Source: Streptosporangiaceae bacterium (GTDB lineage: Bacteria > Actinomycetota > Actinomycetes > Streptosporangiales > Streptosporangiaceae). From it: 64,000 bases of DNA. Below the pieces are notes generated by a model. The model saw nothing but the letters and a program-made list of their open reading frames with translations. It had not been told where the DNA came from and made no database searches. The DNA is taken from NCBI GenBank assembly GCA_036555725.1, contig DATBKU010000039.1, positions 742-64,741 of the forward strand. Direction: 5' to 3'. This document shows positions 10,152 through 39,288 of the stretch, piece after piece. The translations under genes were made by a program, and so were the position numbers. Within the stretch, counting starts at the first letter, position 1. Every line of letters starts with the position of its first letter.

Positions 10152-11177
10152 CTAGTGGGCGCTGGAGGCGGCCCAGATGTTGATGCCGGCGTCGACGGCG
10201 TCCTTGTCGATGGCAGCGAGCTCGTCGGCGGTGAAGCCGAGCCGGTTGACGGCGTCCAGGCTGTCGTCGAGCTGCCCGACGCTGCTCGCCCCGATCAGCA
10301 CCGAAGTGACGCGGGCGTCCCGCAGCGCCCAGGCGAGCGCCATCTGGGCGAGCGACTGGCCGCGGGCGGCGGCGAGCTCGTTGAGCGTACGGATGTGCGC
10401 CAGCGCCTCGTCGGTGAGCAGGTCCGGCGACAGCGACGTGTCCCGGCTGGCCCGCGAGCCCGCCGGGATGCCGTTCAGGTACTTGTCGGTGAGCATGCCC
10501 TGCGCCAGCGGCGAGAACGCGATACAGCCGATGCCCTCCGCCTCGAGGGTTTCGAGCAGGCCGCCCTCGATCCAGCGGTTCAGCATCGAGTACGACGGTT
10601 GATGGATGAGCGGCGGGGTGCCCATCTCGCGCAGGATCGCGGCGGCCTCGGCGGTGCGCTCCGGCGAGTACGACGAGATGCCCGCGTACAGCGCCTTGCC
10701 GGACCGTACGGCCTGGTCGAGTGCGCCCATCGTCTCCTCGAGCGGGGTCTCCGGGTCGAAGCGGTGGCTGTAGAAGATGTCGACGTAGTCGAGGCCCATG
10801 CGCGCGAGCGACTGGTCGAGGCTGGCGAGGAGGTACTTGCGCGAGCCCCATTCGCCGTACGGGCCGGGCCACATGTCGTACCCGGCCTTGGTGGAGATGA
10901 CGAGCTCGTCGCGGTACGGCCGGAAGTCCTGGGCGAAGAGCGTGCCGAAGTTGGCCTCGGCCGAGCCGTACGGCGGGCCGTAGTTGTTGGCCAGGTCGAA
11001 GTGGGTCACGCCGCGGTCGAACGCCCGGCGCAGGATCGCCCGCTGGGTCTCGAGCGGCCGGTCGTCGCCGAAGTTGTGCCACAGCCCGAGCGATATGGCG
11101 GGCAGTTTGAGCCCGCTCCGCCCGCAGCGCCGGTAGGGAAAGCTGTCGTAACGATCGTCAGCGGCGAGATAGGTCAT
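10152..11177 (-). CDS. aldo/keto reductase (YghZ/Gpr-like, L-glyceraldehyde-3-phosphate reductase type)
   Basis: Start at MTYLAADDRYDSFPYRRCGRSGLKLPAISLGLWHNFG. Has DLANNYG and other AKR motifs. The upstream 94 ORF-track codons belong to the overlapping kinase region. Confidence 0.9.
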   Translation of the reverse strand: MTYLAADDRYDSFPYRRCGRSGLKLPAISLGLWHNFGDDRPLETQRAILRRAFDRGVTHFDLANNYGPPYGSAEANFGTLFAQDFRPYRDELVISTKAGYDMWPGPYGEWGSRKYLLASLDQSLARMGLDYVDIFYSHRFDPETPLEETMGALDQAVRSGKALYAGISSYSPERTAEAAAILREMGTPPLIHQPSYSMLNRWIEGGLLETLEAEGIGCIAFSPLAQGMLTDKYLNGIPAGSRASRDTSLSPDLLTDEALAHIRTLNELAAARGQSLAQMALAWALRDARVTSVLIGASSVGQLDDSLDAVNRLGFTADELAAIDKDAVDAGINIWAASSAH

Positions 11178-12216
11178 GGGAGGGAGTCTGCCATCCGGGC
11201 AGCGGGAACCGCGGCGGTGCACCGCCCGGCGCCGACGTGTCGACGTGCGGCCGGGCGCCCACCTGCGAGACGGCGACCGCTCCGGCCCGGCAGCCGGCCA
11301 CGAGGGCGGCGCGCTCGCCGGCCCCGGTGAGGCGGGCGGCGAGGAACCCTCCGGCGAAGGCGTCGCCCGCCCCGGTCGAGTCGATCGGCGCCACCCGGCG
11401 TCCCGGCACGCGTACGACCACCCGGCCTTGGCGCGCGGCCAGTGCGCCCACCCCGCCAAGCTTGACCACGGCCAGGCTGTACGTCCGGCTGAGCGCGGCG
11501 GCGGCGGTCTCGATGTCGGCCTCGCCGGTCAGCAGTACGGCCTCGTCGCGGTTGGGCAGGATGACGCAGCCGGCGGTGGCCTCGACGAACTGCTCGACGC
11601 CGAAGTCGGACAGGAACCCGGTCGACGCCGGGTCGACGCTGATCGGCACGCCGCGCCGCCGGGCCTGGTTCATCGCCAGCCGGACGAGGTCCCGTCCGCC
11701 CGGGCTGAACAGCGCGTAGCCCGACACGTGCAGGTGGGCGCTGCCGTCGAGGAGGTCGTCGCGCCAGTCGGCCGGGGACAGGTGGCCGCCCGCGCCGCGA
11801 TGGGTGAGCATGGTCCGCTCCCCGGCCGCGTCGACCATGACGACGATGACGGCCGTGGGCCGGTTCGGATCGACCTGGAGATGCGGCCGTACGCCCGCGG
11901 CCACGAGCTGCCGGCGGTGCCACTCGCCCGTGTCCGACCCGACCCGCGCCAGCAGCCGTACGTCCGCACCGAGCGAGGCGGCCCACGCGGCGGTGTTCGC
12001 GGCCGACCCACCGGGCCGTACGACGATGTCGGCGGCGGTGTCGGTGCCGGTGGCGATCGGCCGCTGGTGCAGGGCCAGCACGTCGGTGACCACGTCGCCG
12101 ATCACCAGCAGGCCGGGCCGGCGGCGCGGACGTTCCGCATGCGTCCCCTGCTGGTACCCGGCCCAGGCCGCGGCGCGCGTCTGCGGCGCGCGCGACTGCC
12201 GTCCGTTCGGGGTCAT
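11158..12216 (-). CDS. psuK: PfkB-family carbohydrate kinase, probable pseudouridine kinase
   Basis: Start at MTPNGRQ (ATG 12216, ATGA overlap with the psuG stop). GGSAANTA and DSTGAGDAFAGGF PfkB signatures. Operon partner of the pseudouridine-5'-phosphate glycosidase. Confidence 0.75.
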   Translation of the reverse strand: MTPNGRQSRAPQTRAAAWAGYQQGTHAERPRRRPGLLVIGDVVTDVLALHQRPIATGTDTAADIVVRPGGSAANTAAWAASLGADVRLLARVGSDTGEWHRRQLVAAGVRPHLQVDPNRPTAVIVVMVDAAGERTMLTHRGAGGHLSPADWRDDLLDGSAHLHVSGYALFSPGGRDLVRLAMNQARRRGVPISVDPASTGFLSDFGVEQFVEATAGCVILPNRDEAVLLTGEADIETAAAALSRTYSLAVVKLGGVGALAARQGRVVVRVPGRRVAPIDSTGAGDAFAGGFLAARLTGAGERAALVAGCRAGAVAVSQVGARPHVDTSAPGGAPPRFPLPGWQTPSHDLSRR

Positions 12217-13163
12217 GAGGCGCTGTTTCCCGAGTCGGCCGCCCAGCAGGCCGCGATCTGGGCGGCGAGCCGTACGTTGCCGCGGACGGCGGCGAGGTTG
12301 GCCTCCAGCGACGCGCCGCCGGTGTGCCGGACGAGATAGTCGAGCAGGAACGGCGTGCTGGCCTGTCCGGAGACCCGCTCGCGGTCGGCGGCGGCGAGGG
12401 CGTCGGCCAGGACGCGGTCGTGCAGGGCCGGGTCGAGCTGTTCGCTCTCCGGCACCGGGTTGGCGACGACGAGCGCGCTCGCCGGGCCGCCCAGCACGTC
12501 CTGGCCGCGCATGATCGCCGCGACCTCCTGCGGCGAGTCGACCGCCCAGTCGACGGGTTCGCCGGAGCTGTGCAGGTAGAAGCCGGGGAAGGTGGCGGTA
12601 CGGTACCCGGCCACGGTCACGTTCAGCGTCTCCAGGCGCTGCAGGGTCGCCGGCACGTCGAGGATCGACTTGACCCCGGAGCACACCACGGTGATCCGCG
12701 TACGGCTCAGCAGGTCGAGGTCGGCGGACTCGTCCCAGCTGCTCGTCCAGTCGCGGTGCACCCCGCCGAGGCCGCCGGTGGCGAAGACCCGGATGCCCGC
12801 CCGCGCCGCGAGGAAGGCCGTGGCCGACACCGTCGTTCCGCCGCTCGCCCCGGTGCCGAGTGCGGCCGGGAGGTCGCGGTAGCCGAGCTTGCGCATGCCG
12901 GGCTCGCCCGCGATCCGCTCCAGCCCGGCCGGGTCGAGCCCGATGTGGGCGACGCCGTCGAGGACCGCGATGGTCGCGGGCACGGCGCCGTCGGCCCGGA
13001 CGAGCCGCTCCAGCTCCCGGGCCACGGCCAGGTTGCGCGGCCGGGGCAGCCCGTGGGAGATGATCGTCGATTCGAGCGCGACTATAGGCGCGCCACGGGC
13101 CACCGCCTCGTCCACCTCGCGGGACAGGCGCAGCTCCGACGTGTAATCGGCGGATGCGGTCAT
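12213..13163 (-). CDS. psuG: pseudouridine-5'-phosphate glycosidase
   Basis: Start at MTASADY. VALESTIISHGLPRPRN and TGGLGGVHR motifs are characteristic of PsuG/IndA. Confidence 0.9.
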   Translation of the reverse strand: MTASADYTSELRLSREVDEAVARGAPIVALESTIISHGLPRPRNLAVARELERLVRADGAVPATIAVLDGVAHIGLDPAGLERIAGEPGMRKLGYRDLPAALGTGASGGTTVSATAFLAARAGIRVFATGGLGGVHRDWTSSWDESADLDLLSRTRITVVCSGVKSILDVPATLQRLETLNVTVAGYRTATFPGFYLHSSGEPVDWAVDSPQEVAAIMRGQDVLGGPASALVVANPVPESEQLDPALHDRVLADALAAADRERVSGQASTPFLLDYLVRHTGGASLEANLAAVRGNVRLAAQIAACWAADSGNSAS

Positions 13164-13312
13164 GGGCGGCCGGCACCTCAGAAAAGTTTCGGGCTGTACG
13201 TAGTTCGAACCGTACGTGGCAGCGCGCGGCTTCGTCCAAGCCGGGATCGGCCATGGCCAGCGCCGGTCGCCGGGGACACGACGTGCCTGCTCACGACGTG
13301 AAATGGGGTCGA

Positions 13313-14011
13313 TCACGCGTGGAGCACGACGGCGATCTCGGCGCCGCGCGGCGTCATCGAGCCGGGCACCGGGGTCTGCGTGCGCACCGAGCCGTTGCCG
13401 TTCGTCACGACCACGCGCAGCCCGTACTTGGCCGCCGCCGCCCGGGCCTGGGCCAGGCTGAGCCCGCGCAGGTACGGCACCGTCACCTGATCCGCGGCCG
13501 GAACGCCGTTGGAAACGTACAGGGTGACCCGCCCGCCGATCGGCAGGCCGGTTCCGGCCGCGGGGAAGCTTCGGACGACCTGTCCGGCGGGCAGCGCGGA
13601 CGGGACGCGCAGGATGTTGGCGACGATCAGCCGGGTGGCCCGCAGCCGTACGCGGGCGGTCTGCTGGTCGAGTCCCTCGGTCGGGGGCACGGCGACGTGG
13701 GGGGTGATCGCGACGCGCCGGACCGGCGCCTTCCCGGCCGGGGCCGCGGGCGCCACCGTCTCGACGGGCGCGCCGTCCTGCTGGGTGGCCGCCGCGGGCC
13801 GGGCCGGTGTCTCCGGGCCGGAGTCGCCGCTCAGGTGGCCCATCAGGGTCACCATTGCGAGCACCGCGGCGACGCCGGCGGTCATGATGCCGCCCAAAGT
13901 CAGCATCGTGCGGGTCGACATGTCCTGGTCAGGCCGCCGCTCCTCGGGATCGGCCGCCCAGGTCCTGGTCTGTTCGCGGGTGGTCTCGGGCATCGTCGCT
14001 GTCTCTTCCAC
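13313..14011 (-). CDS. membrane-anchored PASTA-domain protein
   Basis: One TM helix (MLTLGGIMTAGVAAVLAMVTLM), an Ala/Pro linker, then two PASTA-like repeats (VPYLRGLSLAQARAAAAKYGLRVVV...). The start could instead be ATG 13993. Confidence 0.65.
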   Translation of the reverse strand: MEETATMPETTREQTRTWAADPEERRPDQDMSTRTMLTLGGIMTAGVAAVLAMVTLMGHLSGDSGPETPARPAAATQQDGAPVETVAPAAPAGKAPVRRVAITPHVAVPPTEGLDQQTARVRLRATRLIVANILRVPSALPAGQVVRSFPAAGTGLPIGGRVTLYVSNGVPAADQVTVPYLRGLSLAQARAAAAKYGLRVVVTNGNGSVRTQTPVPGSMTPRGAEIAVVLHA

Positions 14012-14174
14012 CGAGGGCTCGCCGCACGCTCGCCGCTAATGGTTGGGATGCACCGGCCCCACGCCAAGTTCGCGACACGCCGCGGACTCGGTGGCCGCGG
14101 CTCTGCGGCATAGGGCACACGGGGCGGCGGGTGGGGTGCCTATCGTCGGGGGAGACGATCGGGAGGTGGGTTGG

Positions 14175-14426
14175 ATGTCGGAGGCGGGCAGCCTGTCGGC
14201 GGCGGAGTTCGGGACGGCGTTCAAGGGGTTCCTGGAGCAGGCGGCGCAGGGGGTCGAGGCGCCCGAGCCGGTCTTCGCGCAGCTGATCCGGGGGCTCTTC
14301 GACGCGGAGCCGGCGCAGCTGCCGATCCTGTCGCAGCAGTTCGAGGTGTCCGACCACCCCAACGTGCAGATCGCGATGGGCGCCGTCATCGGGGCGTCCC
14401 GCGCGGAGCGCCCTGCTAGGGGATGA
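14175..14426 (+). CDS. 83-aa hypothetical protein; possibly the truncated N-terminus of an AAA+ ATPase
   Basis: ATG 14175 follows GGGAGG. High GC3. MSEAGSLSAAEFGTAFKGFLEQAA...LPILSQQFEVSDHPNVQIAMGAV. The stop overlaps the 3' end of the convergent GTPase gene by 11 nt. Confidence 0.4.
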   Translation: MSEAGSLSAAEFGTAFKGFLEQAAQGVEAPEPVFAQLIRGLFDAEPAQLPILSQQFEVSDHPNVQIAMGAVIGASRAERPARG

Positions 14427-16170
14427 GGCGGAGGATCCACCAGACGGTGAGGGCGAGGGCGGCGGCGTTGAGGAGCGACAGGCCGATGAGGATCGCCCAG
14501 CGGCCGGCCTGATAGCTCGCCGGGACCAGCTCGGCCGGGCGACCGCGGGCCGTCCAGGGGTCGCGCAGGGCGGCCGCGGGGACCTCGGGCTCGGTGGCGT
14601 GGCGGGGCGTGTGGCCGTTGAGCGAGAGCCCGCTCACCCAGCCGAGGAGTTCGGCCACGGCGGACGGGTCGGTGTCGAGGCCGGAGGCGAAGTAGCGGAC
14701 CTGCGCGGCGACTTGGTCGAGCGTACGGACCGTATTGCCCATGCCGAGGCCGGCCAGCCAGGAGCGGACGTCGGGGCCGGCGCCGTTGGCCGGGCAGAGG
14801 GAGCCGCCGATCACGGTCTGCCCGAGCAGGTCGGCCTTGGTGAGCACCACGGCAATCCGCTTCTGCCGGCCCCGATCGGGGCGGGACCGTACCTCGTTGA
14901 GGACGCGCTGCAGAGTGTCGGCCGGGTCCTCGTCGGACGTGGCGGCCGCCTTGGCGACCCGCTCGCGCTCCTCGTCGGTCAGCGCCCGCCGCACCTCCGG
15001 CAGCGCGAACGGGTCGACCACGAACAGCAGCGCCTCGCCGTGTTCGAGGTAGCGCAGCGACTCCACCTGGGTCGCCCCGGTGAAGTGCTCGCCGGCCGGG
15101 TCGTACAGGTAGAGGATCCGGCGGGCGGCGCCGGGCAGGTCGACGTCGACCATGGTGGCGAGCGGCAGCTCGGGTCCGGTCTTGGCCAGCTGCCCGCCCC
15201 GTTGGAACTCCGCGAGCGCCCCCGCGTACGCCTGCGCGTGCCGGGCCTCGACGAACGCCACCCGTCCGGTCATCGCCTGGGTGCGGCGGCTCAGCGCCCG
15301 GATGGCGAGGAACATGAACGTCGTCTTGCCCGCCGCCGGGCCGCCGACGAACGGCAGTGGCTCCACGCGGACCCGCCCGATCCGCTCCGGCAGCCGTCCC
15401 GCGCAGTGCGGGCAGTACGGGGTCAGCCGGAACCGGCCGAGTGGGATCGTCGTCGGGAGCCGGGCGCCGCACCGGCACACGTGCCGGGACGCGCCCCAGC
15501 CGTTCGGGGCGAGCCGCCGGTGCCGCGCGCCACAGGAGGGGCACTCGTAGACCGGCAGCGCGATCTTCTCGTAGCAGAACGGGTGCGGGCAGGTCTGCAG
15601 GATCCGGCCGTAGGCCATGAAGCCGCGCTCGACGGCGGCCAGCAGCAGCACACAGCCCAGCCAGGCGGCCAGGCCGGTCACGGCGACGATCCCGTACAAC
15701 ACCCCGAGTGCGACGCCGAGGACGCCGACCGGCACCGCGGCGAGCACGATCCCGCCGCAGATCGCCAGCCACAGCGGGAAGGTGAAGAAGCCGCGCGGCC
15801 CGTCGAGCAGCGACTTCGTCGTGGCGGCCAGCGCCCGCATCGCGACGGTGCGCACCCGCGGCAGGACCGTACGGACGATCATCCACCAGTCGAACCAGAC
15901 CTGGGACAGCAGGTAGTGGCGGTAGGCCGGCTCGGCACCTTCAGCCAGGGATCCGATCGGCGGGCTCATCGGCGGCGTATCGACCGGTGCGGGCCCGTCC
16001 GCCCGGGCGGTGACCAGCGCCCGCCAGGCGTGCCGGTAGTAGTACCCGACGACCGCGACGGTGGTCGCGACCAGCACGGCCGAGAAGACGACCGGGAAGA
16101 CGAAGACGAACCCAACGCCCATGACGGCCAGCCAGACCACCACGAGCAGCACCGCGACGAAGAAGGGCAT
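14416..16170 (-). CDS. polytopic membrane protein with double zinc ribbon and P-loop GTPase domain
   Basis: About 4-5 N-terminal TM helices and one C-terminal TM helix (WAILIGLSLLNAAALALTVWWIL). Cys pairs CPHPFC..CPSC and CRC..CPHC. G1 GGPAAGKTT, G3 YDPAGE, G4-like TKAD. The ATG lies 3 nt after the upstream stop. Confidence 0.8.
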   Translation of the reverse strand: MPFFVAVLLVVVWLAVMGVGFVFVFPVVFSAVLVATTVAVVGYYYRHAWRALVTARADGPAPVDTPPMSPPIGSLAEGAEPAYRHYLLSQVWFDWWMIVRTVLPRVRTVAMRALAATTKSLLDGPRGFFTFPLWLAICGGIVLAAVPVGVLGVALGVLYGIVAVTGLAAWLGCVLLLAAVERGFMAYGRILQTCPHPFCYEKIALPVYECPSCGARHRRLAPNGWGASRHVCRCGARLPTTIPLGRFRLTPYCPHCAGRLPERIGRVRVEPLPFVGGPAAGKTTFMFLAIRALSRRTQAMTGRVAFVEARHAQAYAGALAEFQRGGQLAKTGPELPLATMVDVDLPGAARRILYLYDPAGEHFTGATQVESLRYLEHGEALLFVVDPFALPEVRRALTDEERERVAKAAATSDEDPADTLQRVLNEVRSRPDRGRQKRIAVVLTKADLLGQTVIGGSLCPANGAGPDVRSWLAGLGMGNTVRTLDQVAAQVRYFASGLDTDPSAVAELLGWVSGLSLNGHTPRHATEPEVPAAALRDPWTARGRPAELVPASYQAGRWAILIGLSLLNAAALALTVWWILRLIP

Positions 16171-16173
16171 GGC

Positions 16174-18378
16174 TCACCCGCCACGCCTGCGGAACAGCTT
16201 GCGATGGTCGAGGCCGCGCCGCTCCGGCTTGGCCGCCAGGCGGTCGGTCAGCCGCGCCTTGGCCGGTTCGGCGAGCGCGGCCAGCAGTGCCGCCCGGAAC
16301 TCGGGGGTACGGGCGGCGAGCCGTTCGGCGGCCTTGGCGAAGGCGGCGTCGATCAGTGCGGGGGAGGCCGGCGCGGCGGCGACCTTGTCCAGCGACCGGG
16401 CCACGGCGGGTACCCCGGCGGCCCGGGCGAGCGCGCCGTAGCCGATGACGATGGTGGCGTCCGCGCGCGTCGTAGCCCCGCTCCCGTCCTGCCACCGGAC
16501 GGCGTCGAGCCGCTTGGCCAGCCGTACCACCTCCGGCGCCTCCAGTTCGTCGCGTACGGCGGCGAACGCGCGCGAGGGCAGCGCGGCCAGCGCCGGGTAG
16601 CGGGCGAGCGCCCCGCCCACCGAGTCGGCGCCCCACGAGTCGAGCAGCGCGTCGCACTCGGCGACCGTCGGCGCCGCGCCCGACCAGAGCGCGCGCAGGG
16701 CGGCGTCGACCTCCTCGGGGAGCGGCCCGGACCGGTCGAGCGCGATCGCGTCGCGCGTCAGCTCGACCCGCCTGGCCCGGTTGCGGCTGCCCACGGAGCT
16801 CAGCACCCGCAGCGCGACCCGCGGCGTCCCGGTGAGGTCGCGGCCGAGGGCGAGGTCGCACACCTGGTCGGTGAGCATGGTGGCCCGATTGCTCGCGGTC
16901 GCGGTCTCCAGCCCGGTCAGCGCGCCCGCGATGAGACTGTCGCGCAACCCCGGCGGTGCGGCGTGGATCGCGGCGAACAGGTCGCCGGCGGCCCGCCCGG
17001 CGCATCCGGCCGCGGCGGCGGTCACCTCGGAGCCCGGAAGCGGTACGTGACAGCGTTCGGCGAGGGCGGCGATCGCCGCGATCTCGATCAGGGTGAGTGC
17101 GGCCGCGACGGCGTCGGCGAACGCGGGCGCCAGCCCGGCTCGTGACGCGGATCCCCGCGCCGGGGCGAAGGCCGGGTCCGGGAGCCGGGGGCGCAGCTCC
17201 GGGTCGGCGAGCGCCAGCAGCACGCACCGCGTCGCGTAGCCCTCGGCGAGCTCGTCGTCGCCCGCGCCGTAGGTCAGGTCGCACAGCGCCGCCGCCAGCT
17301 CGAAGCCGAGGCGGGGGAGCGCGGGGGCCAGCTCGCGCCACACCCACGCCGGGACGTCCGCACCGTGCCGCCGCAGGAACTCGGCCGCCGCCGACTCCTC
17401 TACCGGTGTCACGCTCGGATCCCCCTGGCACAGCGCGAGCAGCGCAGCCGCCGTGTCGAACCCGGAGCCGAGCCCGGCCAGCTCGCTGAGCGCGTCGAGC
17501 CCCGCCAGGTCGTGCGCCTGCCACCGCAACGCTGCCGTACGGGCGTACCGCCCGCACCCCGGCGCGAACTCCCCGCTCCCGGGCGGCACCGGCGGGGCAT
17601 CCACGTGGGGTACCCGGTCAGGATCACGCGTGAAGAGCGGTGGGTCGATGAAGAGTGCGGGGGCGGTGTGGCCGGCAGAGGTGCCCGCGTCCCAGACGTC
17701 CGGGGTGGTGCCGACGAGGCGGTACGGCGCGTTGCCAGGGTCGTCGGTGTAGGTGATGAACGACAGCGCGGCGGCGGCCGCGGCGGGCAGCGAGTAGCAC
17801 ACCGCGGCGATCCAGCGGGCGATCACGTCGATGTCGTCGGCGGCGACGGTCACCCGGCCGTGGCCTTGCTCGATGGTCGTGACGACCGCGTCGAGCAGAT
17901 GAGCGAGCGTGCCGTACCCCGCGTCGGCGGCCAGCCAGCGCCCCAGCGTCTCCGGGTCGAACGCGTCGCCCGGGGCCAGGTCGTCGAGCGCCGGCAGGTC
18001 GCCCCGCGCGGGCACGTCGCTCCAGAAGTCGGCCCGCCACAGCTCGATCGGGCGTACGCCTTCGAGCTCGCCCGGCTCGGCCACGACCGCGTGCGCGAGG
18101 AAGTTGCCGTACCGCCCCGAGTAGTCGCGTCCCAGGTAGCGGCAGCGGACCAGCACCGCGCGCCCATCGGCCACGTCGTACGACAGCGCGACCGGGAAGC
18201 GCGCGAGCTCATCCCGGCCGGGGGCGGGCGGGGCGCCGGGCGGCGGCCGGTAGGTGAGGTACGGCGCCACGGACGCCTCGGCCCCGGGCGGCAGACCCGG
18301 CGTCGCCGCCACGAACTGGAAGCCCGCCCGGCCGGTCGGCCCGGACCGGGCGGAGGTGTACTGCAGCTGCCAGGCCAC
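16174..18378 (-). CDS. 734-aa GTPase-associated (GAP1-like) protein, N-terminal alpha/beta module plus Ala-rich helical body
   Basis: GTG start at 18378, 2 nt after the upstream TAA, with GGGAGA RBS. N-terminus VAWQLQYTSARSGPTGRAGFQFVAATPGL. The rest is predicted helical. No TM helix and no NTPase motifs. Confidence 0.65.
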   Translation of the reverse strand: MAWQLQYTSARSGPTGRAGFQFVAATPGLPPGAEASVAPYLTYRPPPGAPPAPGRDELARFPVALSYDVADGRAVLVRCRYLGRDYSGRYGNFLAHAVVAEPGELEGVRPIELWRADFWSDVPARGDLPALDDLAPGDAFDPETLGRWLAADAGYGTLAHLLDAVVTTIEQGHGRVTVAADDIDVIARWIAAVCYSLPAAAAAALSFITYTDDPGNAPYRLVGTTPDVWDAGTSAGHTAPALFIDPPLFTRDPDRVPHVDAPPVPPGSGEFAPGCGRYARTAALRWQAHDLAGLDALSELAGLGSGFDTAAALLALCQGDPSVTPVEESAAAEFLRRHGADVPAWVWRELAPALPRLGFELAAALCDLTYGAGDDELAEGYATRCVLLALADPELRPRLPDPAFAPARGSASRAGLAPAFADAVAAALTLIEIAAIAALAERCHVPLPGSEVTAAAAGCAGRAAGDLFAAIHAAPPGLRDSLIAGALTGLETATASNRATMLTDQVCDLALGRDLTGTPRVALRVLSSVGSRNRARRVELTRDAIALDRSGPLPEEVDAALRALWSGAAPTVAECDALLDSWGADSVGGALARYPALAALPSRAFAAVRDELEAPEVVRLAKRLDAVRWQDGSGATTRADATIVIGYGALARAAGVPAVARSLDKVAAAPASPALIDAAFAKAAERLAARTPEFRAALLAALAEPAKARLTDRLAAKPERRGLDHRKLFRRRGG

Positions 18379-18380
18379 CC

Positions 18381-19583
18381 TTATCTCCCGTCGAGCATGC
18401 CGAACCGGTACAGCAGCCACAGCAGCGGATCCTCGACCCGGTACGGCCGGACCCCGCCGGTACCGACCCGTCCGTCGCTGGGCACGCCGCCCAGCGCCGA
18501 GAGCCCGAAGAGCGCGTACTGGGCGTAGCGCTGGCCGAGGTACACATCGAGCTGCCCGGCCTGCCGCTCGTGCAGCAGGGCCCGTACCTGCTCGTGGACG
18601 GCCTCCCGGTCGTCGAGGTCGAGTGTGCCGGGGTTGCCGCGGGCGCGGTGCAGGGCCGACTGCCGCTCCGTCGCCGGGAGCATCGCGTCGATCTTGGTGA
18701 GCGCCACGGCCGCCGGGATGTCCAGGCGGCCCTTGTTCGGTCCGCGGCGCTGGGTGCCGCGCCGCCCGCTGACGATCTCGGTGACGCGTGCGATGACGTC
18801 GATCGGGTCGCTGTCGGGGCTGCCGCCGCCGGGCAGCTCGTGCGGGTCGACGAGGAAGATGATCGCGTCGGCCGCCTCCAGATAGCGCAGGTGCAGGTCG
18901 GCGACGTCCCGGCTGCGCAGGTCCTCGCCGGCGGTATCGAACAGCACGAGCGCGAGTGCGGCCTGCCGGGCCCGCCCGGTCCGGCCGGTGTTCGTCCGCG
19001 TCAGCAGGTAGACCAGCGGCTCGCGCGGCGCGGTCGCGGCGCTGGTGGTCGTCGGCAGCAGCCGCCGCTCGTCGTACAGCGGGCGGGCGAAGTCGCGCTT
19101 GTAGCGGTCGATGGTGCGGTCGTCGCAGGCGACCAGCGACGCGTCGAGCTCGGTGCCCACCCGGTTCATCAACTCGTGCAGCAGGACCGCGATGTACGTG
19201 CTCTTGCCCGCGTTCTTGGCGCCGACGAGGGCGACGATGCGGCCCGCGGTGTCGCAGTACGCGGCCGGCAGCGGGTTGTGGCACTCGGGACAGACCCGGC
19301 GCCCGGTCGGCCGGCCGCACTCGGGGCACTCGGCACGGGGGCGCGGCGCTCCGGACGGCGACCCGGCGCGCAGGGCCCGTGCCATGGCGTTCTTCCCGGG
19401 CCTGACCGGCGGCGGGAACACCGGTGGCAGCGAGGCGGCCGCGGTCGACCCGGTGTACCGGGCGAGCGCCTCGTCCAGCACCGGCCCGCACCCGGCGCCG
19501 CGTCCGGACCGGCCCACGCACCGGAACGCGATCCGGTCGCGCGGAACGGTCGCGAAGCAGTACGGGCAGGTCACCGTGCTCAT
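18381..19583 (-). CDS. soluble double-zinc-ribbon P-loop GTPase
   Basis: CPYC..C..C and CPEC-x10-CPEC ribbons. G1 GAKNAGKST, G3 FDTAGE, G4-like TKID. Paralogue of the GTPase domain in 14416..16170. Confidence 0.8.
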   Translation of the reverse strand: MSTVTCPYCFATVPRDRIAFRCVGRSGRGAGCGPVLDEALARYTGSTAAASLPPVFPPPVRPGKNAMARALRAGSPSGAPRPRAECPECGRPTGRRVCPECHNPLPAAYCDTAGRIVALVGAKNAGKSTYIAVLLHELMNRVGTELDASLVACDDRTIDRYKRDFARPLYDERRLLPTTTSAATAPREPLVYLLTRTNTGRTGRARQAALALVLFDTAGEDLRSRDVADLHLRYLEAADAIIFLVDPHELPGGGSPDSDPIDVIARVTEIVSGRRGTQRRGPNKGRLDIPAAVALTKIDAMLPATERQSALHRARGNPGTLDLDDREAVHEQVRALLHERQAGQLDVYLGQRYAQYALFGLSALGGVPSDGRVGTGGVRPYRVEDPLLWLLYRFGMLDGR

Positions 19584-19690: not shown

Positions 19691-22369
19691 TTATTGGAAC
19701 CGCAGGCGGCGGACCGGTGGGTCGGCCAGCTCCGCCTCGGCGCCGCTATCGAGGAAGCAGCGCAACCAGTATGGCCCGGTCTGTCCGGACCGGGGCTTCG
19801 GGATGGAAACCTCCAGGTCGGTGGGGCCGGTCAGGTCGAGGTCGTCCCAGGCGGCGACCGGCTCGCCGTCGCCCGGCCGCTGCGGGATGACCTTGCCGGC
19901 GCTGCGCACCAGCGTGAGCCGCCGCAGCCGGACGGACTGGTCGGGGGACAACGACAGGACGAGCCCGCGCCGCCACGGAGGCCCGGTCCGGTACAGGTCG
20001 TAGCGCACCAGGCACCGTCCCGGCACGGTCGTCGTCACCGGCGCCCCGCTCAGCCGGCTGCCGCCGGTCAGCCCGATCGAGCACACGGCGACCTCGACGG
20101 CGGCGCTCTCCGGTACGCCCAGCCGCAGGCCACCCTGCGCGTCGTACGCGGCCCGGGTCACCGTCAGCCGCCGCGGCCCGTCGCCGTTGACCTGGTAGGC
20201 CGCCTCGACCTCGGCCACCCCGGGCGGCCAGTCGAAGCCGACCATGATCACCTCGCCGCGGCGCTCGGCGACCAGGCCGGTCGGCGGCGGCAGGTTCACG
20301 TGCCGCCGGTGCGCCCCGATCGCGGCGGTGTCCCCGGCGATGGTGACGGCGAGCAGCACCCCGGTCGGGGCCTGGAACCGCAGGCCCTCGCGCGGCGGGG
20401 TGGCCGTGATCGGTACGGCGGCGAGCCGGCGCCCGGTCCGCAGCACCTCGGCCATCGGCACGATCGAGCCGTACGGCCACGGGGGCGCGGCGCCCAGCAC
20501 GACGACCTCGGCGGTGCCGCTCGACGGCGCGGCGAACGTGGCCACCACCCGGCCGGGATCGCCGGGGTCGGGCTCCACGGTGAGATCGGGGATGGGGGAG
20601 GGCGGCGCGGCGGGCGTGGCGGACCGCCATACGCCGGGCGTCGTCACCTCCGCCCCGTCGCGGTCCAGATAGACGGCGGTCAGCCGGTAGTGATACGTGC
20701 CCCCGTTCCGTACGGCGTGGTCGCGGAAGCTCTCCCGGTCGGCGGGCACCGGTACGTCGCCGCGAGTCACCAGCGTGCGGGCGGCCTCGGGCGGGCAGCG
20801 CCATCGGCCCGTCACCACGCCGTCGCCGGCGAACAGCTCGACGTCAGACGGCTCCGGCCGGACCAGCACCGGACCGGCGATCACGGGCGGGGCGGCAGCG
20901 TCGCCGCGCTGCGCCACCACGGCGTACGTGAGTGGCACGTTGACCGGCGGCCGCTCGTCGCGCACCGCGAGGTCGGCGGTGACCGCGATCTCCGTGCCGC
21001 TCCCGCCCGGCCCGGCCCGGACGACCTGGTAGTCGATATCGCCGGCCGTCGACGGCGAGGCCGGCCAGGTCAGCTGAACGGCCGTCCCGTCGACCGTGGC
21101 CTGCGCGGCGGGCACCGGACGGGGCGGCAGCCGGCGCCGGTGCTCCTCGGCGCCCGGCAGGTCGGGGACGAGCTGCAGTGCCTCGGCGAGCAGGTCCCAC
21201 GCCCGGTCGGGGTCCGGCGTGGCGGCCGCCGCGGACCGCAGCCGTACTCCCTCGGCCACCCGCTGCCGCGCCTCGGCGCCGAGGATGGTGGCGTCGCGGT
21301 CGAGGTTGCCGGGGGCGGTCTCGGCCAGCAACGCCTCGGCGACCAGCGCGGCGGCGTGCACCTCGCCGGCGTCGATCAGCTCCCGCAGCCGCCCGGCCGG
21401 GCCGCCCGCGCGCCCGCCCTCCTCCCGCTCGATGGCGAAGACGAGGCGCTGGGCGTCGTTTTCGTCGAGGCCCAGGTCGGCGGTCGCGTACCGCAGCAGG
21501 GCCCGTTCCGAGGCGCGCATGCGCTGCCGCTCCCGCAGCCGGTCCGCGATGTCGTACAGCACCAGCTCGTCGAGCTTCTCCTGCTTGACGGCGACCTTGA
21601 GCGCGACGAGCACCGTGTCGGCGTTGGTGGCGCTGCTGTCACGGGCGTGCCGCGCCCAGCGCTGCGCGACGGCCTCGACCTCGTCGCGGTCCAGCCGTAC
21701 GCCCGGGGCCTGGAAGCCGCCGAGCACCCGCATCGACCCGGTCAGCCGGGCGCCGAGCACGAAGTCGGGCACGTGCCGGTTGCCCAGAACATGCAGCGCC
21801 TCCCGTACGCGCTGAAAGGCCTGGTACGGCGGGACCGTGGGCAGCGGGTCGGGGTCGCGGATCTCGACACCGGAGGCGGCGGCCAGCTCGGCCAGCTCCG
21901 TCACGGCCAGTCCGCCCGCCCGGGCCAGGCTGTCGATATCGGCCGGGGCGAGCAGGCCCAGCGCGCCGGCCGCGTCGAGCAGCCGGGCCTTGGCCTCGAC
22001 CCGGCGCCGGGTCGTGTTCGCCTGCGCCGCGCGCAGCCTGGCCTGCAACGGCCCGAGGTCGCCGCCGGCCGCAGCGTCGAACACCGGCACGAGGGCGCGA
22101 TGCTCGGCCTCCAGCCGGTCGATCAGCTTGCGGTACTTCAGCTGGCCGCGCGCCCGCCGCCAGACCTGCCGCACCTCCTTGACCGAGCCGGCCACCTCGG
22201 CGGGCCGGAGCGGCTCGCGGAGCCGGTAGCGTACCCGCAGGTCCTCGGGCGGCTGGTCGCCCGCCGCCCGCGCGGGCTCCAGCACCTCCTGCTTGTACGC
22301 CTCGTCAACGTTCATGGGCTTGCTTCGCTTCGCCGGCTCGCGCGCGTTCGCCCGCGTGCTCGCGTGCAA
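19691..22369 (-). CDS. 892-aa protein: N-terminal helical region plus C-terminal FN3/Ig-like beta-sandwich array
   Basis: TTG start at 22369, 7 nt after AAGGTGAG and 3 nt after the Hsp70-like stop; alternative ATG at 22315. FN3-like segments (TAVQLTWPASP...YQVVRA, GGTYHYRLTAVY). No signal peptide, TM helix or HPD motif. Confidence 0.65.
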   Translation of the reverse strand: MHASTRANAREPAKRSKPMNVDEAYKQEVLEPARAAGDQPPEDLRVRYRLREPLRPAEVAGSVKEVRQVWRRARGQLKYRKLIDRLEAEHRALVPVFDAAAGGDLGPLQARLRAAQANTTRRRVEAKARLLDAAGALGLLAPADIDSLARAGGLAVTELAELAAASGVEIRDPDPLPTVPPYQAFQRVREALHVLGNRHVPDFVLGARLTGSMRVLGGFQAPGVRLDRDEVEAVAQRWARHARDSSATNADTVLVALKVAVKQEKLDELVLYDIADRLRERQRMRASERALLRYATADLGLDENDAQRLVFAIEREEGGRAGGPAGRLRELIDAGEVHAAALVAEALLAETAPGNLDRDATILGAEARQRVAEGVRLRSAAAATPDPDRAWDLLAEALQLVPDLPGAEEHRRRLPPRPVPAAQATVDGTAVQLTWPASPSTAGDIDYQVVRAGPGGSGTEIAVTADLAVRDERPPVNVPLTYAVVAQRGDAAAPPVIAGPVLVRPEPSDVELFAGDGVVTGRWRCPPEAARTLVTRGDVPVPADRESFRDHAVRNGGTYHYRLTAVYLDRDGAEVTTPGVWRSATPAAPPSPIPDLTVEPDPGDPGRVVATFAAPSSGTAEVVVLGAAPPWPYGSIVPMAEVLRTGRRLAAVPITATPPREGLRFQAPTGVLLAVTIAGDTAAIGAHRRHVNLPPPTGLVAERRGEVIMVGFDWPPGVAEVEAAYQVNGDGPRRLTVTRAAYDAQGGLRLGVPESAAVEVAVCSIGLTGGSRLSGAPVTTTVPGRCLVRYDLYRTGPPWRRGLVLSLSPDQSVRLRRLTLVRSAGKVIPQRPGDGEPVAAWDDLDLTGPTDLEVSIPKPRSGQTGPYWLRCFLDSGAEAELADPPVRRLRFQ

Positions 22370-24595: not shown

Positions 24596-24675
24596 GTGGA
24601 CAAACCCTAACGGTCGGTAACCCTTAACGATAGCCCAGCATGCCGAAACAGCTGAGCATTCTCTGTGTCGATACT

Positions 24676-24718
24676 GCCGTGAATCACGCCGGAAACGTAG
24701 GCCCTGCAGCCGTGAATC
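24676..24718. promoter_or_regulatory. direct repeat GCCGTGAATC x2 (33-bp spacing) upstream of the GrpE-like operon
   Basis: Copies at 24676-24685 and 24709-24718, 80-125 nt upstream of the GTG at 24595. The function is inferred only from position. Confidence 0.25.
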
Positions 24719-25021
24719 CCGCGATCAGGAGTAGATTATCCGAGGTCAGCGGCGGTCACACTGTTTGCCGCGTATCCGGGTCTGTTGCCCTTCGGGAAGC
24801 CCGGTTCGTGCCCACCGGCCCCGGCGTGTTCGGCGGCATCGACACGCCCGGCGTCCGGCCGGTGCCGCCGCGGCGCCGACGGCACGCCCTACGGCTTGGC
24901 CCGTCAGCGGGCCCGAGGTAGTGGTGCGCGTCGCCCGCCGATCGCGACGACCCAACCCCTTCACATCGCCATCCGGATCCCCTCGTTAGGCGTGATGACT
25001 CGGCTATTTTCCGACGACAAA

Positions 25022-25050
25022 GGCCTGACAAACGATTGCATTGTCAGGCC
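25022..25050. promoter_or_regulatory. 29-bp palindrome/hairpin GGCCTGACAA-ACGATTGCA-TTGTCAGGCC containing a LacI-type operator core
   Basis: Perfect 10-bp arms. The loop and inner arms contain CAAACGATTGCATTG, identical to 7662-7676. Confidence 0.4.
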
Positions 25051-25107
25051 GCCGAAATGCCGTCAGGTGACATGTCATGGAACCATCGTCGATGCGGATG
25101 CCGATTG

Positions 25108-25132
25108 TGGACACATTGGCCGATTGTGTCCA
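25108..25132. promoter_or_regulatory. inverted repeat TGGACACA-N9-TGTGTCCA
   Basis: Perfect 8-bp arms about 190 nt upstream of the first kinase ATG. A GCCGATTGTG direct repeat overlaps both arms. Confidence 0.25.
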
Positions 25133-25323
25133 AATAATGGGGATGCCGGGATACGCACCGGTAGGTATGAGTTGGTCAAAAGACTCAGTCTGCCCGATTT
25201 ACATGCGCTAGCTTCGGCGTAGTCCCCACGACGACGCACGAGAGTGCGAGGGGGGTGTCGTGCCAAAGAGGGCCTCGACACTGCGTAGAGAGGTGTTGTC
25301 CTGGCTTTAGGAAGTTGATCAAG

Positions 25324-26565
25324 ATGGGTTCGAAGCCGATCGGCCCGTACGAGGCGCTGCGCAAACTGGGCTCGGGGGGAATGGGGACCGTCTATCTCGC
25401 CCTGGACGCAGAAGGTCATACGGTGGCGGTCAAGGTGATCCACCCGCACGTGGCCGAAGACATGAACGGCCTGAAGCGGCTGGCCAGAGAAGTCGAGACC
25501 ATGAAACGGGTGGCGAGTCCGTATGTGGCCGAGTTGCTCGACGCCGATTTGACCGGCAGCCATCCCTACATCGTCACCCGTTATGTGCAGGGCCGGTCAT
25601 TGCAAGACGTGGTCACGCGGCGCGGCACGCTGACCGGTGACCAGCTATGGACACTGGGTAAGGGACTCGCCGCCGCGTTGGACGCGATCCACGGAGCCGA
25701 CGTTATCCACCGGGACCTCACGCCCGGCAATGTCATGCTCTCCGATGGCGTTCCCATCGTCATTGATTTCGGCATCGCCCGGGCATTTGACGCGACGCGT
25801 ATCACCCAGACCATGATTGGCACCCCCGGCTATGTCGCCCCCGAAGTGATTCGGGGGGAACGCGCGGGGCCGCCGGCCGACGTCTTTTCTTGGGCGGCCA
25901 CGATGATCTACGCCGCCACCGGCAAAAGGTGCTTCGACGGCAAAAATCTCATGGAGGTTTTTCAACGCACGCTCGAAGCGGAGCCGGATCTCACCGGCGT
26001 CCCGCGTGATCTGCTGCCGGTGCTGTGGAAATCCTTGCGCAAGGATCCATCCGAGCGGCCGTCGCTGGCCGGGGTGATCGGCACCGTCTCCACTCTCGCA
26101 CCCGACACGACGTGGCCGGCCGTGCCGTCGCGGCGCACGTCGGCGAGCCGGCTCCCAGGGCTGTGGGCGGCCGCCGGGGAGGCGCGCGAACGGGGCGACA
26201 TCAATCGTGCGGCCGAGCTCTACGCCGAGGTTTGGAAGGTCGCCATCAGCAACGAAGATCCTGGCAGCGAGATGTTCGCGCTCTACCAGCTCGGGTGGGC
26301 GGCGGAGTCCCGCCTCGACTATGGCGCGGCCCACGGCTTCTACGAGCAAGCGCTGCAGGCCGCGAAATCCGTGGACGCCGCGTCCATCCAGGCGCTGGCG
26401 CTGCGTGAGCTGGAGCAGCTCTCCCGCATGAGGGGCGATACGGACGCCGCGCGCGCCTACGCGGAGGAAGCGCGCCACGTGCTGGACAAGAGGTACAAGG
26501 CCGGTTATCCCCGGCTCCCGGACGGGGACAGCGAGCCCTTCGTGCGGCCGTGGGTGCGCGGGTAG
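25324..26565 (+). CDS. Hanks-type Ser/Thr protein kinase with C-terminal TPR-like module (soluble)
   Basis: GSGGMGTVY G-loop, VAVKV, HRDLTPGN catalytic loop, DFG and APE. The C-terminal ~120 aa contain TPR-like helices. No TM segment. Confidence 0.9.
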   Translation: MGSKPIGPYEALRKLGSGGMGTVYLALDAEGHTVAVKVIHPHVAEDMNGLKRLAREVETMKRVASPYVAELLDADLTGSHPYIVTRYVQGRSLQDVVTRRGTLTGDQLWTLGKGLAAALDAIHGADVIHRDLTPGNVMLSDGVPIVIDFGIARAFDATRITQTMIGTPGYVAPEVIRGERAGPPADVFSWAATMIYAATGKRCFDGKNLMEVFQRTLEAEPDLTGVPRDLLPVLWKSLRKDPSERPSLAGVIGTVSTLAPDTTWPAVPSRRTSASRLPGLWAAAGEARERGDINRAAELYAEVWKVAISNEDPGSEMFALYQLGWAAESRLDYGAAHGFYEQALQAAKSVDAASIQALALRELEQLSRMRGDTDAARAYAEEARHVLDKRYKAGYPRLPDGDSEPFVRPWVRG

Positions 26566-26607: not shown

Positions 26608-26676
26608 TAAACTAGGCGTTACTTGATCGGTGCTGTCGGAATGGGGCGTCCCCCGCGGCCCTGGGAGTGGATCACG

Positions 26677-27918
26677 ATGCATCCGGATCGGGTCGGCCCG
26701 TACGAGGTGCTGCGCAGACTGGGCAGCGGCGGAATGGGTTCGGTCTACCTGGCTCTGGACGAAGACGGCCACACCGTCGCGGTCAAGGTGATCCATCCGC
26801 ATGTCGCCGAGGACGTGAACGGCCTGCGCCGGCTGGCCCGCGAGGTGGCGGCCATGAAGCGGGTGGCGAGCCCGTTCGTCGCCGAGCTGCTGGACGCCGA
26901 CCTCGACGCCGACCCCGCTTACCTCGTCACCCGCTACGTGCAGGGCCTGTCGCTGCAGGAGCTCGTCGAGCGGCGCGGCCCGCTGACCGGTGAGGCGCTG
27001 TCGAGCCTGGGCCAGGGCCTGGTGACGGCGCTGGACGCCGTCCACGGCGTCGACGTCGTGCATCGGGACCTCACCCCGCGCAACGTCATGATGGCCGACG
27101 GCGTCCCGACGGTGATCGACTTCGGCATCGCGCAGGCCTTCGACGCGACCCGCATCACCCAGACCCTGATCGGCACGCCCGGGTTCGTGGCGCCGGAGGT
27201 GATCCAGGGCGAGCGGGCCGGCCCGGAGGCGGACATCTTCTCCTGGGCGGCCACGATGGTCTTCGCCGCGACCGGCCACAAGTGCTTCGGCGGCCGGAAC
27301 TTCCTGGAGACCCTGCACCGGACGCTGGCCAAGGACCCCGACCTGTCCGGCGTGCCGCACGAGCTGACCACCATCCTCGCCCGCTCGCTGCGCAAGGACC
27401 CCGCCCGGCGTCCGCCGATCAACGCGCTGATCGCGGGCATCTTCATCAAGTCCCCGGGCGAGGCGCCGCCGGTTCCGTCGCAGCGGCAGAGCCCCGCGAG
27501 CCGGGTCGCCGCCCTGTGGTCCGCGGCGGGGCAGGCTCGGGAGAAGGGCGAGCACGGCCGGGCCGAGGCGCTGTACGGCGAGGTACGGCAGCTCGCGGTC
27601 AAGTCAAAAGACCTGGCCGGCGAGATGTTCGCCACCTACCAGCTGGCGTCCGCCGCCGAGCACCGCCGAGACTACGGCGCCGCACAGGACTTCTACGGCC
27701 GGGTACAGGACATCGCCAGGAGACTGCGCTCGCCGACCATCGAGGCGCAGGCGCTCCAGGGCCTCGAACGCCTGGCCCGCATGACCGACAACACGAACCT
27801 GGCCTGGGCCTACGCCGAGCAGGCCCGGCGGGTGGTGGCCGACAAACACACCCAGGGTTATCCGAAGCAATTCGAAGAGCCCGACGGCGAGCCCCTGTTG
27901 CGGCCCTGGACGCCCTGA
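26677..27918 (+). CDS. Hanks-type Ser/Thr protein kinase with C-terminal TPR-like module (paralogue of 25324..26565)
   Basis: Same architecture as the first kinase and collinear with it over the full length. HRDLTPRN catalytic loop. Confidence 0.9.
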   Translation: MHPDRVGPYEVLRRLGSGGMGSVYLALDEDGHTVAVKVIHPHVAEDVNGLRRLAREVAAMKRVASPFVAELLDADLDADPAYLVTRYVQGLSLQELVERRGPLTGEALSSLGQGLVTALDAVHGVDVVHRDLTPRNVMMADGVPTVIDFGIAQAFDATRITQTLIGTPGFVAPEVIQGERAGPEADIFSWAATMVFAATGHKCFGGRNFLETLHRTLAKDPDLSGVPHELTTILARSLRKDPARRPPINALIAGIFIKSPGEAPPVPSQRQSPASRVAALWSAAGQAREKGEHGRAEALYGEVRQLAVKSKDLAGEMFATYQLASAAEHRRDYGAAQDFYGRVQDIARRLRSPTIEAQALQGLERLARMTDNTNLAWAYAEQARRVVADKHTQGYPKQFEEPDGEPLLRPWTP

Positions 27919-33073: not shown

Positions 33074-33077
33074 AACT

Positions 33078-35984: not shown

Positions 35985-36029
35985 GGGCGCGGGCCTCCCG
36001 CGTGAGGGGTGGGTTGGCGGTCGCGAGGC

Positions 36030-36065
36030 GTCCCGCCCCCGGAGGAGTCGAGGTGGGGGCGGGAC
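36030..36065 (-). terminator. 11-bp perfect-stem hairpin between the GH3 and GH35 genes
   Basis: GTCCCGCCCCC (36030-36040) pairs with GGGGGCGGGAC (36055-36065), with a 14-nt loop. There is no U-tract. Confidence 0.4.
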
Positions 36066-36081
36066 ACCGGTCCGCGGTTGG

Positions 36082-39126: not shown

Positions 39127-39159
39127 GAAGGTCCTCCCTGATGCGTAGCGGACAGGGAA

Positions 39160-39175
39160 GTCGAAGCGCTTCGAC
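39160..39175. promoter_or_regulatory. perfect 16-bp palindrome GTCGAAGCGCTTCGAC (LacI-family operator), copy 1
   Basis: Lies 34-49 nt upstream of the GH3 ATG. Confidence 0.6.
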
Positions 39176-39288
39176 AACCTGGCCGCGAAAATGAACTTCA
39201 CATACCCCGGGGAAGGTCGTCAAGGCCCAATTACGTGGGCGCTTAGAAGACTTGTGCTTTAGTGAGGCAAGGTCTAGATTCACGCCCA

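Follow-up and report, generated by a model that had tools for sequence, protein, structure and literature searches.

The window analysed here is a stretch of 64,000 nucleotides from a Streptosporangiaceae bacterium (assembly GCA_036555725.1, contig DATBKU010000039.1, positions 742 to 64,741 of the forward strand). It carries a six-gene operon that encodes, from the first gene to the last, a GrpE-like protein, a lid-less Hsp70, a protein with predicted fibronectin type III (FNIII) repeats, a soluble GTPase (GTPase A), GTPase-associated protein 1 (GAP1) and a membrane-anchored GTPase (GTPase B), all co-directional (Table 1). GTPases A and B are thus encoded by the fourth and sixth genes, with the GAP1 gene between them. 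Intergenic gaps of 0 nt (GrpE/Hsp70), 2 nt (A/GAP1) and 3 nt (GAP1/B) indicate translational coupling at these three junctions, and the GTG start codon of GAP1 is preceded by GGGAGATAAGG. A scan for terminators and promoters 3′ of GTPase B found nothing. The G+C content of the window is ~70–77% around the GTPase genes, and exact database matches for window proteins bear the locus tags VH912_06315 and VH912_06320. A first-pass annotation had treated the two GTPases as a stand-alone pair, overlooking GAP1 between them and the FNIII, Hsp70 and GrpE genes upstream, which together form a strictly conserved operon; it is this operon context that identifies the system.

Table 1. Operon genes and GTPase features in the window. 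ZnR, predicted zinc ribbon; TM, transmembrane helix; aa, amino acids.
Feature	Position (nt)	Strand	Assignment or basis
GrpE-like nucleotide-exchange factor, 207 aa	23972..24595	-	Pfam GrpE PF01025; first operon gene
Divergent lid-less Hsp70 paralogue, 532 aa	22373..23971	-	Pfam HSP70 PF00012
FNIII-repeat protein, 874 aa from Met19 (892-aa ORF to 22369)	19691..22315	-	Fn3-like families on homologues
Soluble DO-GTPase A, 400 aa	18381..19583	-	Pfam DO-GTPase2 PF19993
GTPase A ZnR1	19568..19488	-	Four Cys
GTPase A ZnR2	19328..19281	-	Four Cys
GTPase A G1 GAKNAGKS	19223..19200	-	Motif
GTPase A G3 DTAGE	18938..18924	-	Motif
GTPase A G4 TKID	18698..18687	-	Motif
GAP1 (GTPase-associated protein 1), 734 aa, GTG start	16174..18378	-	GAP1-N2 PF20013 + GAP1-M PF20014
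Membrane-anchored DO-GTPase B, 584 aa	14416..16170	-	Pfam DO-GTPase2 PF19993
GTPase B four N-terminal TM helices	16164..15628	-	Hydropathy
GTPase B ZnR1	15591..15532	-	Four Cys
GTPase B ZnR2	15477..15403	-	Four Cys
GTPase B G1 GGPAAGKT	15345..15322	-	Motif
GTPase B G3 DPAGE	15102..15088	-	Motif
GTPase B G4 TKAD	14841..14830	-	Motif
GTPase B C-terminal TM	14505..14425	-	Hydropathy

Both GTPase reading frames are present on the minus strand with the zinc ribbons, P-loop, DxxGE and TKxD motifs that the first-pass annotation had assigned to them. In GTPase A, residues C6, C9, C22 and C32 form ZnR1 and residues C86, C89, C98 and C101 form ZnR2, followed by the G motifs GAKNAGKS at residue 121, DTAGE at 216 and TKID at 296. 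In GTPase B, the corresponding ribbons comprise C194, C199, C210 and C213 and C232, C234, C253 and C256, with GGPAAGKT at residue 276, DPAGE at 357 and TKAD at 444. Each GTPase is therefore predicted to carry two four-cysteine zinc ribbons, which presumably bind metal. Three of the cysteine spacers had been given wrongly, and the others stand: the second ribbon of A reads CPEC-x8-CPEC, not x10, and in B the spacer between C199 and C210 is x10, not x9, and that between C234 and C253 is x18, not x22.

The zinc-ribbon–GTPase module of B lies between transmembrane segments. Two tight hairpins (residues ~3–45 and ~128–181) make up four N-terminal transmembrane helices, and a single helix spans residues ~556–582 at the C-terminus; of the four to five N-terminal helices and one C-terminal helix that had been proposed, all but the fifth hold. 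These helices are visible in the AlphaFold model of B, and their arrangement is conserved among B orthologues. By hydropathy and charge analysis, Lys and Arg residues are restricted to the loop at residues 46–127 and the module at residues 182–555, which places the module in the cytoplasm, and the outward-facing turns are just 1, 6 and 2 residues long. The module thus sits on the inner side of the membrane, to which both of its ends are anchored.

Aligned directly by BLASTP, A and B share 30% identity over 226 residues (E 5e-13), a span running from ZnR2 through G1 and G3 to G4. This pairwise comparison of the cores confirms, at the level of sequence, that A and B are paralogous GTPases, and the hydropathy and charge analysis bears out the earlier description of one as soluble and the other as membrane-embedded. 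Among 28 orthologues of B, all eight cysteines, G1, DPAGE and TKxD are invariant. Among 120 orthologues of A, GKS occurs in 120/120 and DxxGE in 119/120, and G4 reads TKxD in 108 and SKxD in 10; zinc ribbon 1 is found in 114/120 and zinc ribbon 2 in 119/120. Judged from these alignments, conservation of the motifs lies far beyond chance, and both GTPases appear to keep their full catalytic motifs under strong purifying selection.

Against the Pfam DO-GTPase2 family PF19993, A scores 39.5 bits (E 6.7e-10) and B 73.1 bits (E 3.4e-20), both above the cutoff of 27 bits. Database records name the orthologues 'Double-GTPase 2 domain-containing protein' or 'TRAFAC clade GTPase domain-containing protein', and an NCBIfam search gave no match for the two GTPases, GAP1 or the FNIII protein. 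From these profile matches, A and B are almost certainly DO-GTPases (Pfam PF19993/PF19975). The DO-GTPase family goes back to comparative genomics by Kaur, Burroughs, Iyer and Aravind (eLife 2020; PMC7159879), who described it as a new TRAFAC family with a conserved Walker B glutamate. In their account, DO-GTPases are always linked to GAP1, with one or two N-terminal zinc ribbons in 60%; 62% of systems have a single GTPase, and the 38% with two paralogous copies are taken to suggest that these function as a dimer (Kaur et al. 2020; PMC7159879).

Two sequence traits of the pair gain meaning from the wider family. TKxD in place of NKxD, which the first-pass annotation had singled out, is present in both proteins, but does not set the pair apart. 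Across 143 scorable family representatives clustered at 50% identity, the first residue of G4 is Ser in 72, Thr in 44, Ala in 13, Gln in 5 and Asn in 1, with the G4 Lys and Asp kept and DxxGE present in 133/143. Loss of the G4 asparagine is a trait of the whole family and no peculiarity of A and B. The Asp that normally reads guanine is retained, which makes GTP specificity plausible for both. The second trait concerns P-loop position 3, equivalent to Gly12 of Ras, which is Lys in 120/120 orthologues of A and Pro in 119/119 orthologues of B; Lys or Arg occupies it in 106/144 family representatives. The fixed Lys and Pro make the paralogues consistently asymmetric, and we found no mention of this asymmetry in the parts consulted of Kaur et al. 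2020 (PMC7159879). Nine long family members (757–1406 residues) searched for Pfam fusions had only the GTPase domain, one DZR and one TSP3 repeat, so fusions carry no information on partners.

A distribution scan that took one genome per species yielded 147 loci, 80 of which were fetched for analysis of gene order. Sixty-six of these have sufficient upstream DNA, and in 66/66 the six genes occur in identical order and orientation (Actinomadura, Spirillospora, Thermomonospora and Actinocorallia); GTPases A and B are both present in every locus with enough DNA. The protein collection holds 213 close relatives of B and 605 of A, in Actinomadura, Spirillospora, Thermomonospora, Actinocorallia and Actinoallomurus, with relatives of A additionally in Planobispora, Sphaerisporangium and Streptosporangium. 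The six genes are inherited as a unit across Thermomonosporaceae and Streptosporangiaceae. Gene by gene, 58 full loci were compared to the window copy, giving mean identities of 82% for Hsp70, the most conserved operon gene, 71% for GTPase A, 65% for GTPase B, 54% for the FNIII protein, 49% for the GrpE-like protein and 45% for GAP1.

In the AlphaFold model of A (mean predicted local distance difference test score (pLDDT) 80, predicted TM-score 0.82), the zinc ribbons pack against a G domain of ~285 residues. The top PDB fold matches of this model are atlastin-3 (E 1e-6), atlastin-1 (to E 1e-4), GBP1 and GBP2, and further matches include MglA, Arl6, Ran, YcjX and EF-1alpha, with TM-scores of 0.2–0.5 overall; those to atlastin and GBP are weak, at 0.3–0.4, with root-mean-square deviations of 8–12 Å. 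The model of B has a pLDDT of 65, falling to ~30 in the zinc-ribbon region, and the G domain alone was used; it matches Rab28, G-alpha (Gi/Go/Gq), MglA and Rho. Fold searches with both models return TRAFAC GTPases only. A PDB profile search gave, for the GTPase, only P-loop-level matches (ABC transporters) and a weak match of the second ribbon to the Nop10 zinc ribbon (E 0.03), which indicates that there is no solved relative. On these models, A and B are TRAFAC GTPases of a family of their own, and in structure they incline weakly to the large G domains found in dynamin-superfamily proteins.

Comparison with better-known GTPases delimits what this leaning can mean. Like atlastin and GBP, its best structural matches, the G domain of A is large and has insertions, and its G4 lacks Asn; unlike them, A and B have no helical bundle or stalk, carry N-terminal zinc ribbons and have a Glu after DxxG. 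Atlastin is anchored by a transmembrane hairpin and acts through GTP-dependent dimers of its G domain. With Ras-like small GTPases, MglA and G-alpha, A and B share the TRAFAC core, but the Gly12 equivalent is Lys or Pro, the Gln61 equivalent is Glu and the G4 Asn is absent, and the G domain is much larger, with zinc ribbons, and transmembrane helices, added. SRP54 and FtsY resemble the pair in concept, as two paralogous GTPases that form a heterodimer with one partner at the membrane, but belong to the SIMIBI class, whereas A and B are TRAFAC proteins.

The first-pass annotation had inferred that a soluble 'sensor' and a membrane 'effector' heterodimerise by analogy with paired dynamin-like or signal recognition particle (SRP)-type GTPases. 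In this scheme the two proteins would form a self-contained module, with A sensing a ligand through its zinc ribbons and B acting as a dynamin-like or SRP/FtsY-like effector. The confirmed paralogy, the membrane-embedded copy, the rank of atlastin and GBP among the fold matches of A, and the occurrence of TKxD in dynamin and SRP-type GTPases all fit such a module. We nevertheless consider it very unlikely. In the loci examined, the A/B pair is always accompanied by GAP1, the FNIII protein, Hsp70 and GrpE. The dynamin analogy holds to the extent that atlastin and GBP are the nearest folds of A, but at weak TM-scores, and there is no Dynamin_N Pfam match and no stalk or middle domain; A ends with its G domain at residue 400, which leaves no residues for a stalk. 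The SRP analogy fails on class: the 50 best fold matches of each model include no chain of SRP or FtsY, and no SRP54 Pfam match, N domain or I-box was detected in A or B. B has no extracytoplasmic or pore-like effector domain, in keeping with its short external turns, and because the pair of ribbons is common to A and B, it does not mark a 'sensor'. Nothing assigns the sensor role to A or the effector role to B.

The remaining four proteins of the operon supply the context. GAP1 matches GAP1-N2 (PF20013) over residues 1–133 (E 9.6e-42) and GAP1-M (PF20014) over residues 147–237 (E 2.8e-21). Over the 58 full loci, GAP1-N2 retains 63–79% identity, and the C-terminal half, which is helical, falls to 23–45%, making it the fastest-evolving stretch of the operon (window 16174..17300). 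This half would be the best candidate for a surface of target recognition and specificity, or of sensing.

The Hsp70 matches its Pfam family at E 3e-107 and scores 355 bits, against a DnaK equivalog cutoff of 648. Its residues 7–351 align to the nucleotide-binding domain of DnaK and residues 408–521 to the β part of the substrate-binding domain (SBD-beta), and the protein ends at residue 532; from this alignment it appears to consist of these two domains without the helical lid. The GrpE-like protein matches Pfam at E 2.3e-8 with 34.4 bits, over a family cutoff of 25.8 bits, and falls below every NCBIfam GrpE equivalog cutoff. As in the canonical DnaK–DnaJ–GrpE system, an Hsp70 with nucleotide-binding domain and SBD-beta is encoded next to a GrpE-like partner; unlike in that system, the Hsp70 lacks a lid and lies far under the DnaK equivalog cutoff, no J-domain protein is encoded in the operon, and the Hsp70 is coupled to two GTPases, GAP1 and the FNIII protein.

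The FNIII protein is predicted to be helical in its N-terminal half and to carry several Fn3-like domains in the C-terminal one. An identical database protein (P0121) is 874 residues long. Homologues (P0121–P0240) carry precomputed matches to PF25832, PF25833 and PF25835, named 'SaeA first/.../fourth Fn3-like domain', or bear the name 'Fibronectin type-III domain-containing protein'. The local Pfam copy, which lacks these three families, gave no match to the protein, and its helical N-terminal half had no TPR match there. A PDB profile search returned one weak match, to the Fn3 domain of tissue factor (E 0.2), and no transmembrane helix was found (maximum hydropathy 1.4). A literature search for the origin of the name 'SaeA' found nothing relevant, and a paper on the alarmone synthetase 'SaEAS' proved unrelated. 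The 'sae' genes are, reportedly from work by Coros et al. in 2008, ESX-1-associated genes of M. smegmatis; a search with MSMEG_0044-0046 gave no matches, and no ESX or type VII secretion system (T7SS) genes occur among the annotated window neighbours. Should there be a characterised SaeA, the sole experimental data on the GAP1/DO-GTPase system may lie with it.

This combination of parts has a published counterpart. According to Kaur et al. 2020 (PMC7159879), ~14% of neighbourhoods, mainly in actinobacteria and firmicutes, contain Hsp70, GrpE and an FNIII-repeat protein, the last as a rule joined to a DnaJ domain or to TPR repeats. In their model, the GTPases form a switch, GAP1 and the FNIII protein act as coordinator and sensor, and Hsp70 provides the output (PMC7159879). 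The window operon shares with these GAP1-N2-type systems paired TRAFAC GTPases with DxxGE and two N-terminal zinc ribbons each, a GAP1 with N2 and M domains downstream of a GTPase, a protein with predicted FNIII repeats, Hsp70 and GrpE, and an actinobacterial host. It differs in an FNIII protein without a J domain or TPR match, in the undetected GAP1-C domain, and in belonging to a clade whose loci are syntenic, slow-evolving and chromosomally fixed rather than variable. The operon architecture is therefore already known, from the computational description of 2020 and the curated Pfam families. The explanation that we favour overall, and hold to be very probably correct, is that A and B are the DO-GTPase pair of a GAP1-N2-type, GTPase-centric system with the Hsp70/GrpE theme. 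This system would operate through a switch of the following kind.

Soluble GTPase A would be recruited to the cytoplasmic face of the membrane, where it and the doubly tethered B may form a GTP-dependent heterodimer. GAP1, whose gene is translationally coupled between those of A and B, would use its conserved N2 and M domains to bind the dimer. GTP binding and hydrolysis would then serve as an on/off switch that licenses the FNIII protein and Hsp70–GrpE to act on a membrane-proximal target, with the FNIII protein taking the client-selecting place of the missing J-protein. This mechanism follows Kaur et al. and the anatomy of the proteins; we offer it tentatively, at even odds of being right or slightly less. 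The heterodimer proposed in the first-pass annotation agrees with the published inference for the family.

Alternatively, A and B may not pair at all. Each might act by itself, whether monomeric or homodimeric; A could, for instance, work with GAP1 in the cytosol and B serve only to anchor another component in the membrane. The 62% of DO-GTPase systems with a single GTPase (PMC7159879) mean that a partner paralogue is not obligatory in the family, and the consistent P-loop difference between A and B could reflect separate roles. The strict co-occurrence of the two proteins, the tight coupling of the A, GAP1 and B genes, and the complete catalytic motifs kept in both under strong purifying selection speak for pairing, and we regard independent action as improbable.

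Several points weigh against the interpretation of the operon as a switch-controlled DO-GTPase conflict system. The heterodimer, the use of GTP over ATP, zinc binding and the coupling to Hsp70 are all steps that we infer. The GAP1-C domain was not detected, and no Pfam match covers GAP1 residues ~327–734. The FNIII protein lacks an HPD motif and has no match to DnaJ. A literature search returned no experimental study of any DO-GTPase/GAP1 member and no later paper with these names. The conflict-system part, in particular, is at odds with the setting of the operon, a conserved chromosomal neighbourhood. Flanking genes, among them an ACT-domain gene and genes for a luciferase-like monooxygenase, a phosphotriesterase, an HtrA-like protease and a molybdopterin oxidoreductase, occur at similar positions in 26–54 of the 58 full loci. 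With A. madurae as reference, the median identity of these flanks is 72–90%, and that of Hsp70, A and B is 92%, 82% and 79%; the GTPases and Hsp70 are as slow-evolving as the flanking metabolic genes. The phage collection contained no match to the family, plasmids gave two remote matches to Rhodococcus megaplasmids (26–27% identity), and PADLOC returned noise only (DpdE, LeoA and HEC-01B, E 7e-4 to 1e-2). No mobile-element or known defence genes were found among the annotated window neighbours. The behaviour of the operon in this clade is that of a chromosomal module fixed in place and passed on vertically, and not that of a mobile defence island. The absence of a patchy, mobile or island-like pattern lowers the claim that it is a typical defence island, and an immune role is still compatible with it.

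These observations raise the alternative that the operon is a core cellular system and not an immune one: a membrane-proximal, GTPase-gated Hsp70 machine for the envelope, secretion or hyphal morphogenesis that follows the same switch logic in response to an endogenous trigger. Besides the conserved flanks, the slow evolution of Hsp70, A and B, and the near absence of defence, phage and plasmid matches, the constant six-gene order in 66/66 loci of four or more genera would suit such a machine, as would the membrane-anchored PASTA protein encoded directly downstream here and in ~1/3 of loci. Our counts, however, cover operon-bearing loci and have no denominator of genomes lacking the operon, so 'universal' is not established. 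The fast-evolving C-terminal half of GAP1 is as expected of a target-recognition surface in an arms race, and long-resident chromosomal immune systems exist. Effectors are swapped across the wider GAP1 family, whose systems Kaur et al. 2020 (PMC7159879) read as conflict systems. Weighing both sides, we think a core cellular role rather unlikely. For the trigger itself, an invading element, as the conflict reading has it, is evenly balanced between true and false, and an endogenous envelope or hyphal signal is a less than likely candidate.

A fuller form of the core-machine idea can be stated, although we view it as doubtful. On this view, the Streptosporangiales operon would have no immune role and would encode a vertically inherited core machine. 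A heterodimeric GTPase switch tethered to the membrane would, with GAP1, gate an Hsp70/GrpE pair that does without a J-protein, and the FNIII protein would be the adaptor between them. The machine would serve envelope or hyphal biology and might be read out by the neighbouring PASTA protein. If true, Hsp70 would here be targeted in a new manner, and the GTPases would make up a new class of membrane switch in bacteria. For the favoured DO-GTPase system, the Hsp70 theme raises the related question of how a lid-less, J-protein-less Hsp70 is coupled to a GTPase pair at the membrane. To the published description our analysis adds a chromosomally fixed, slow-evolving operon across an actinomycete family, the restriction of fast evolution to the C-terminal half of GAP1, and the asymmetric P-loops. 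These observations are open to experimental test and put the 'conflict system' label of the Hsp70 theme mildly in question. The locus also shows that an unusual but genuine architecture can be recognised at a first pass through raw sequence, though this one had been catalogued in 2020 with Pfam families.

Upstream of the operon, a divergent ACT-domain gene lies immediately next to the GrpE-like gene in 54/58 full loci, which are Actinomadura-type (e.g. L045:618-1394, minus strand). Its median identity is 74%, about the level of the operon, and it was unseen among the annotated reading frames of the window. In the window, a tandem pair of genes for Ser/Thr protein kinases whose C-termini are TPR-like, at 25171..26565 and 26611..27918 on the plus strand, diverges from the operon (Pkinase E 9e-46 and 4.5e-43). 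The G+C content at third codon positions (GC3) is 0.80 in the first of them. The interval 24596..25170 between operon and kinases is intergenic, and G+C drops to 53–65% across the region. The kinases are kept next to the operon in the two closest loci from metagenome-assembled genomes (L002 and L003), and not in Actinomadura loci. A separate kinase theme for GAP1-N2 systems, described by Kaur et al. 2020 (PMC7159879), makes a link between kinases and operon conceivable.

Downstream, ~400 nt from the end of B, lies a gene at 13313..14011 (minus strand) for a membrane-anchored protein with two peptidoglycan-binding PASTA domains (E 2.9e-18). A PASTA-like gene directly follows B on the same strand in ~1/3 of the fetched loci, and elsewhere a nitroreductase-like or MFS gene takes this place. 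Some membrane DO-GTPases have peptidoglycan-binding domains fused after the C-terminal transmembrane helix (Kaur et al. 2020; PMC7159879). An open reading frame of 128 codons at 14040..14426 on the plus strand (GC3 0.88), which overlaps the last 11 nt of B, is probably spurious, since it has no Pfam match and no counterpart in 80 related loci. The rest of the neighbourhood (31574..39219 and 10152..13316, both minus strand) is devoted to ordinary metabolism and encodes an alpha-L-fucosidase, a GH35 beta-galactosidase and a GH3 enzyme with CBM6, along with an indigoidine-synthase-A-like protein (of the pseudouridine-5′-phosphate glycosidase type) and MFS, TerC and MmyB-like regulator proteins.

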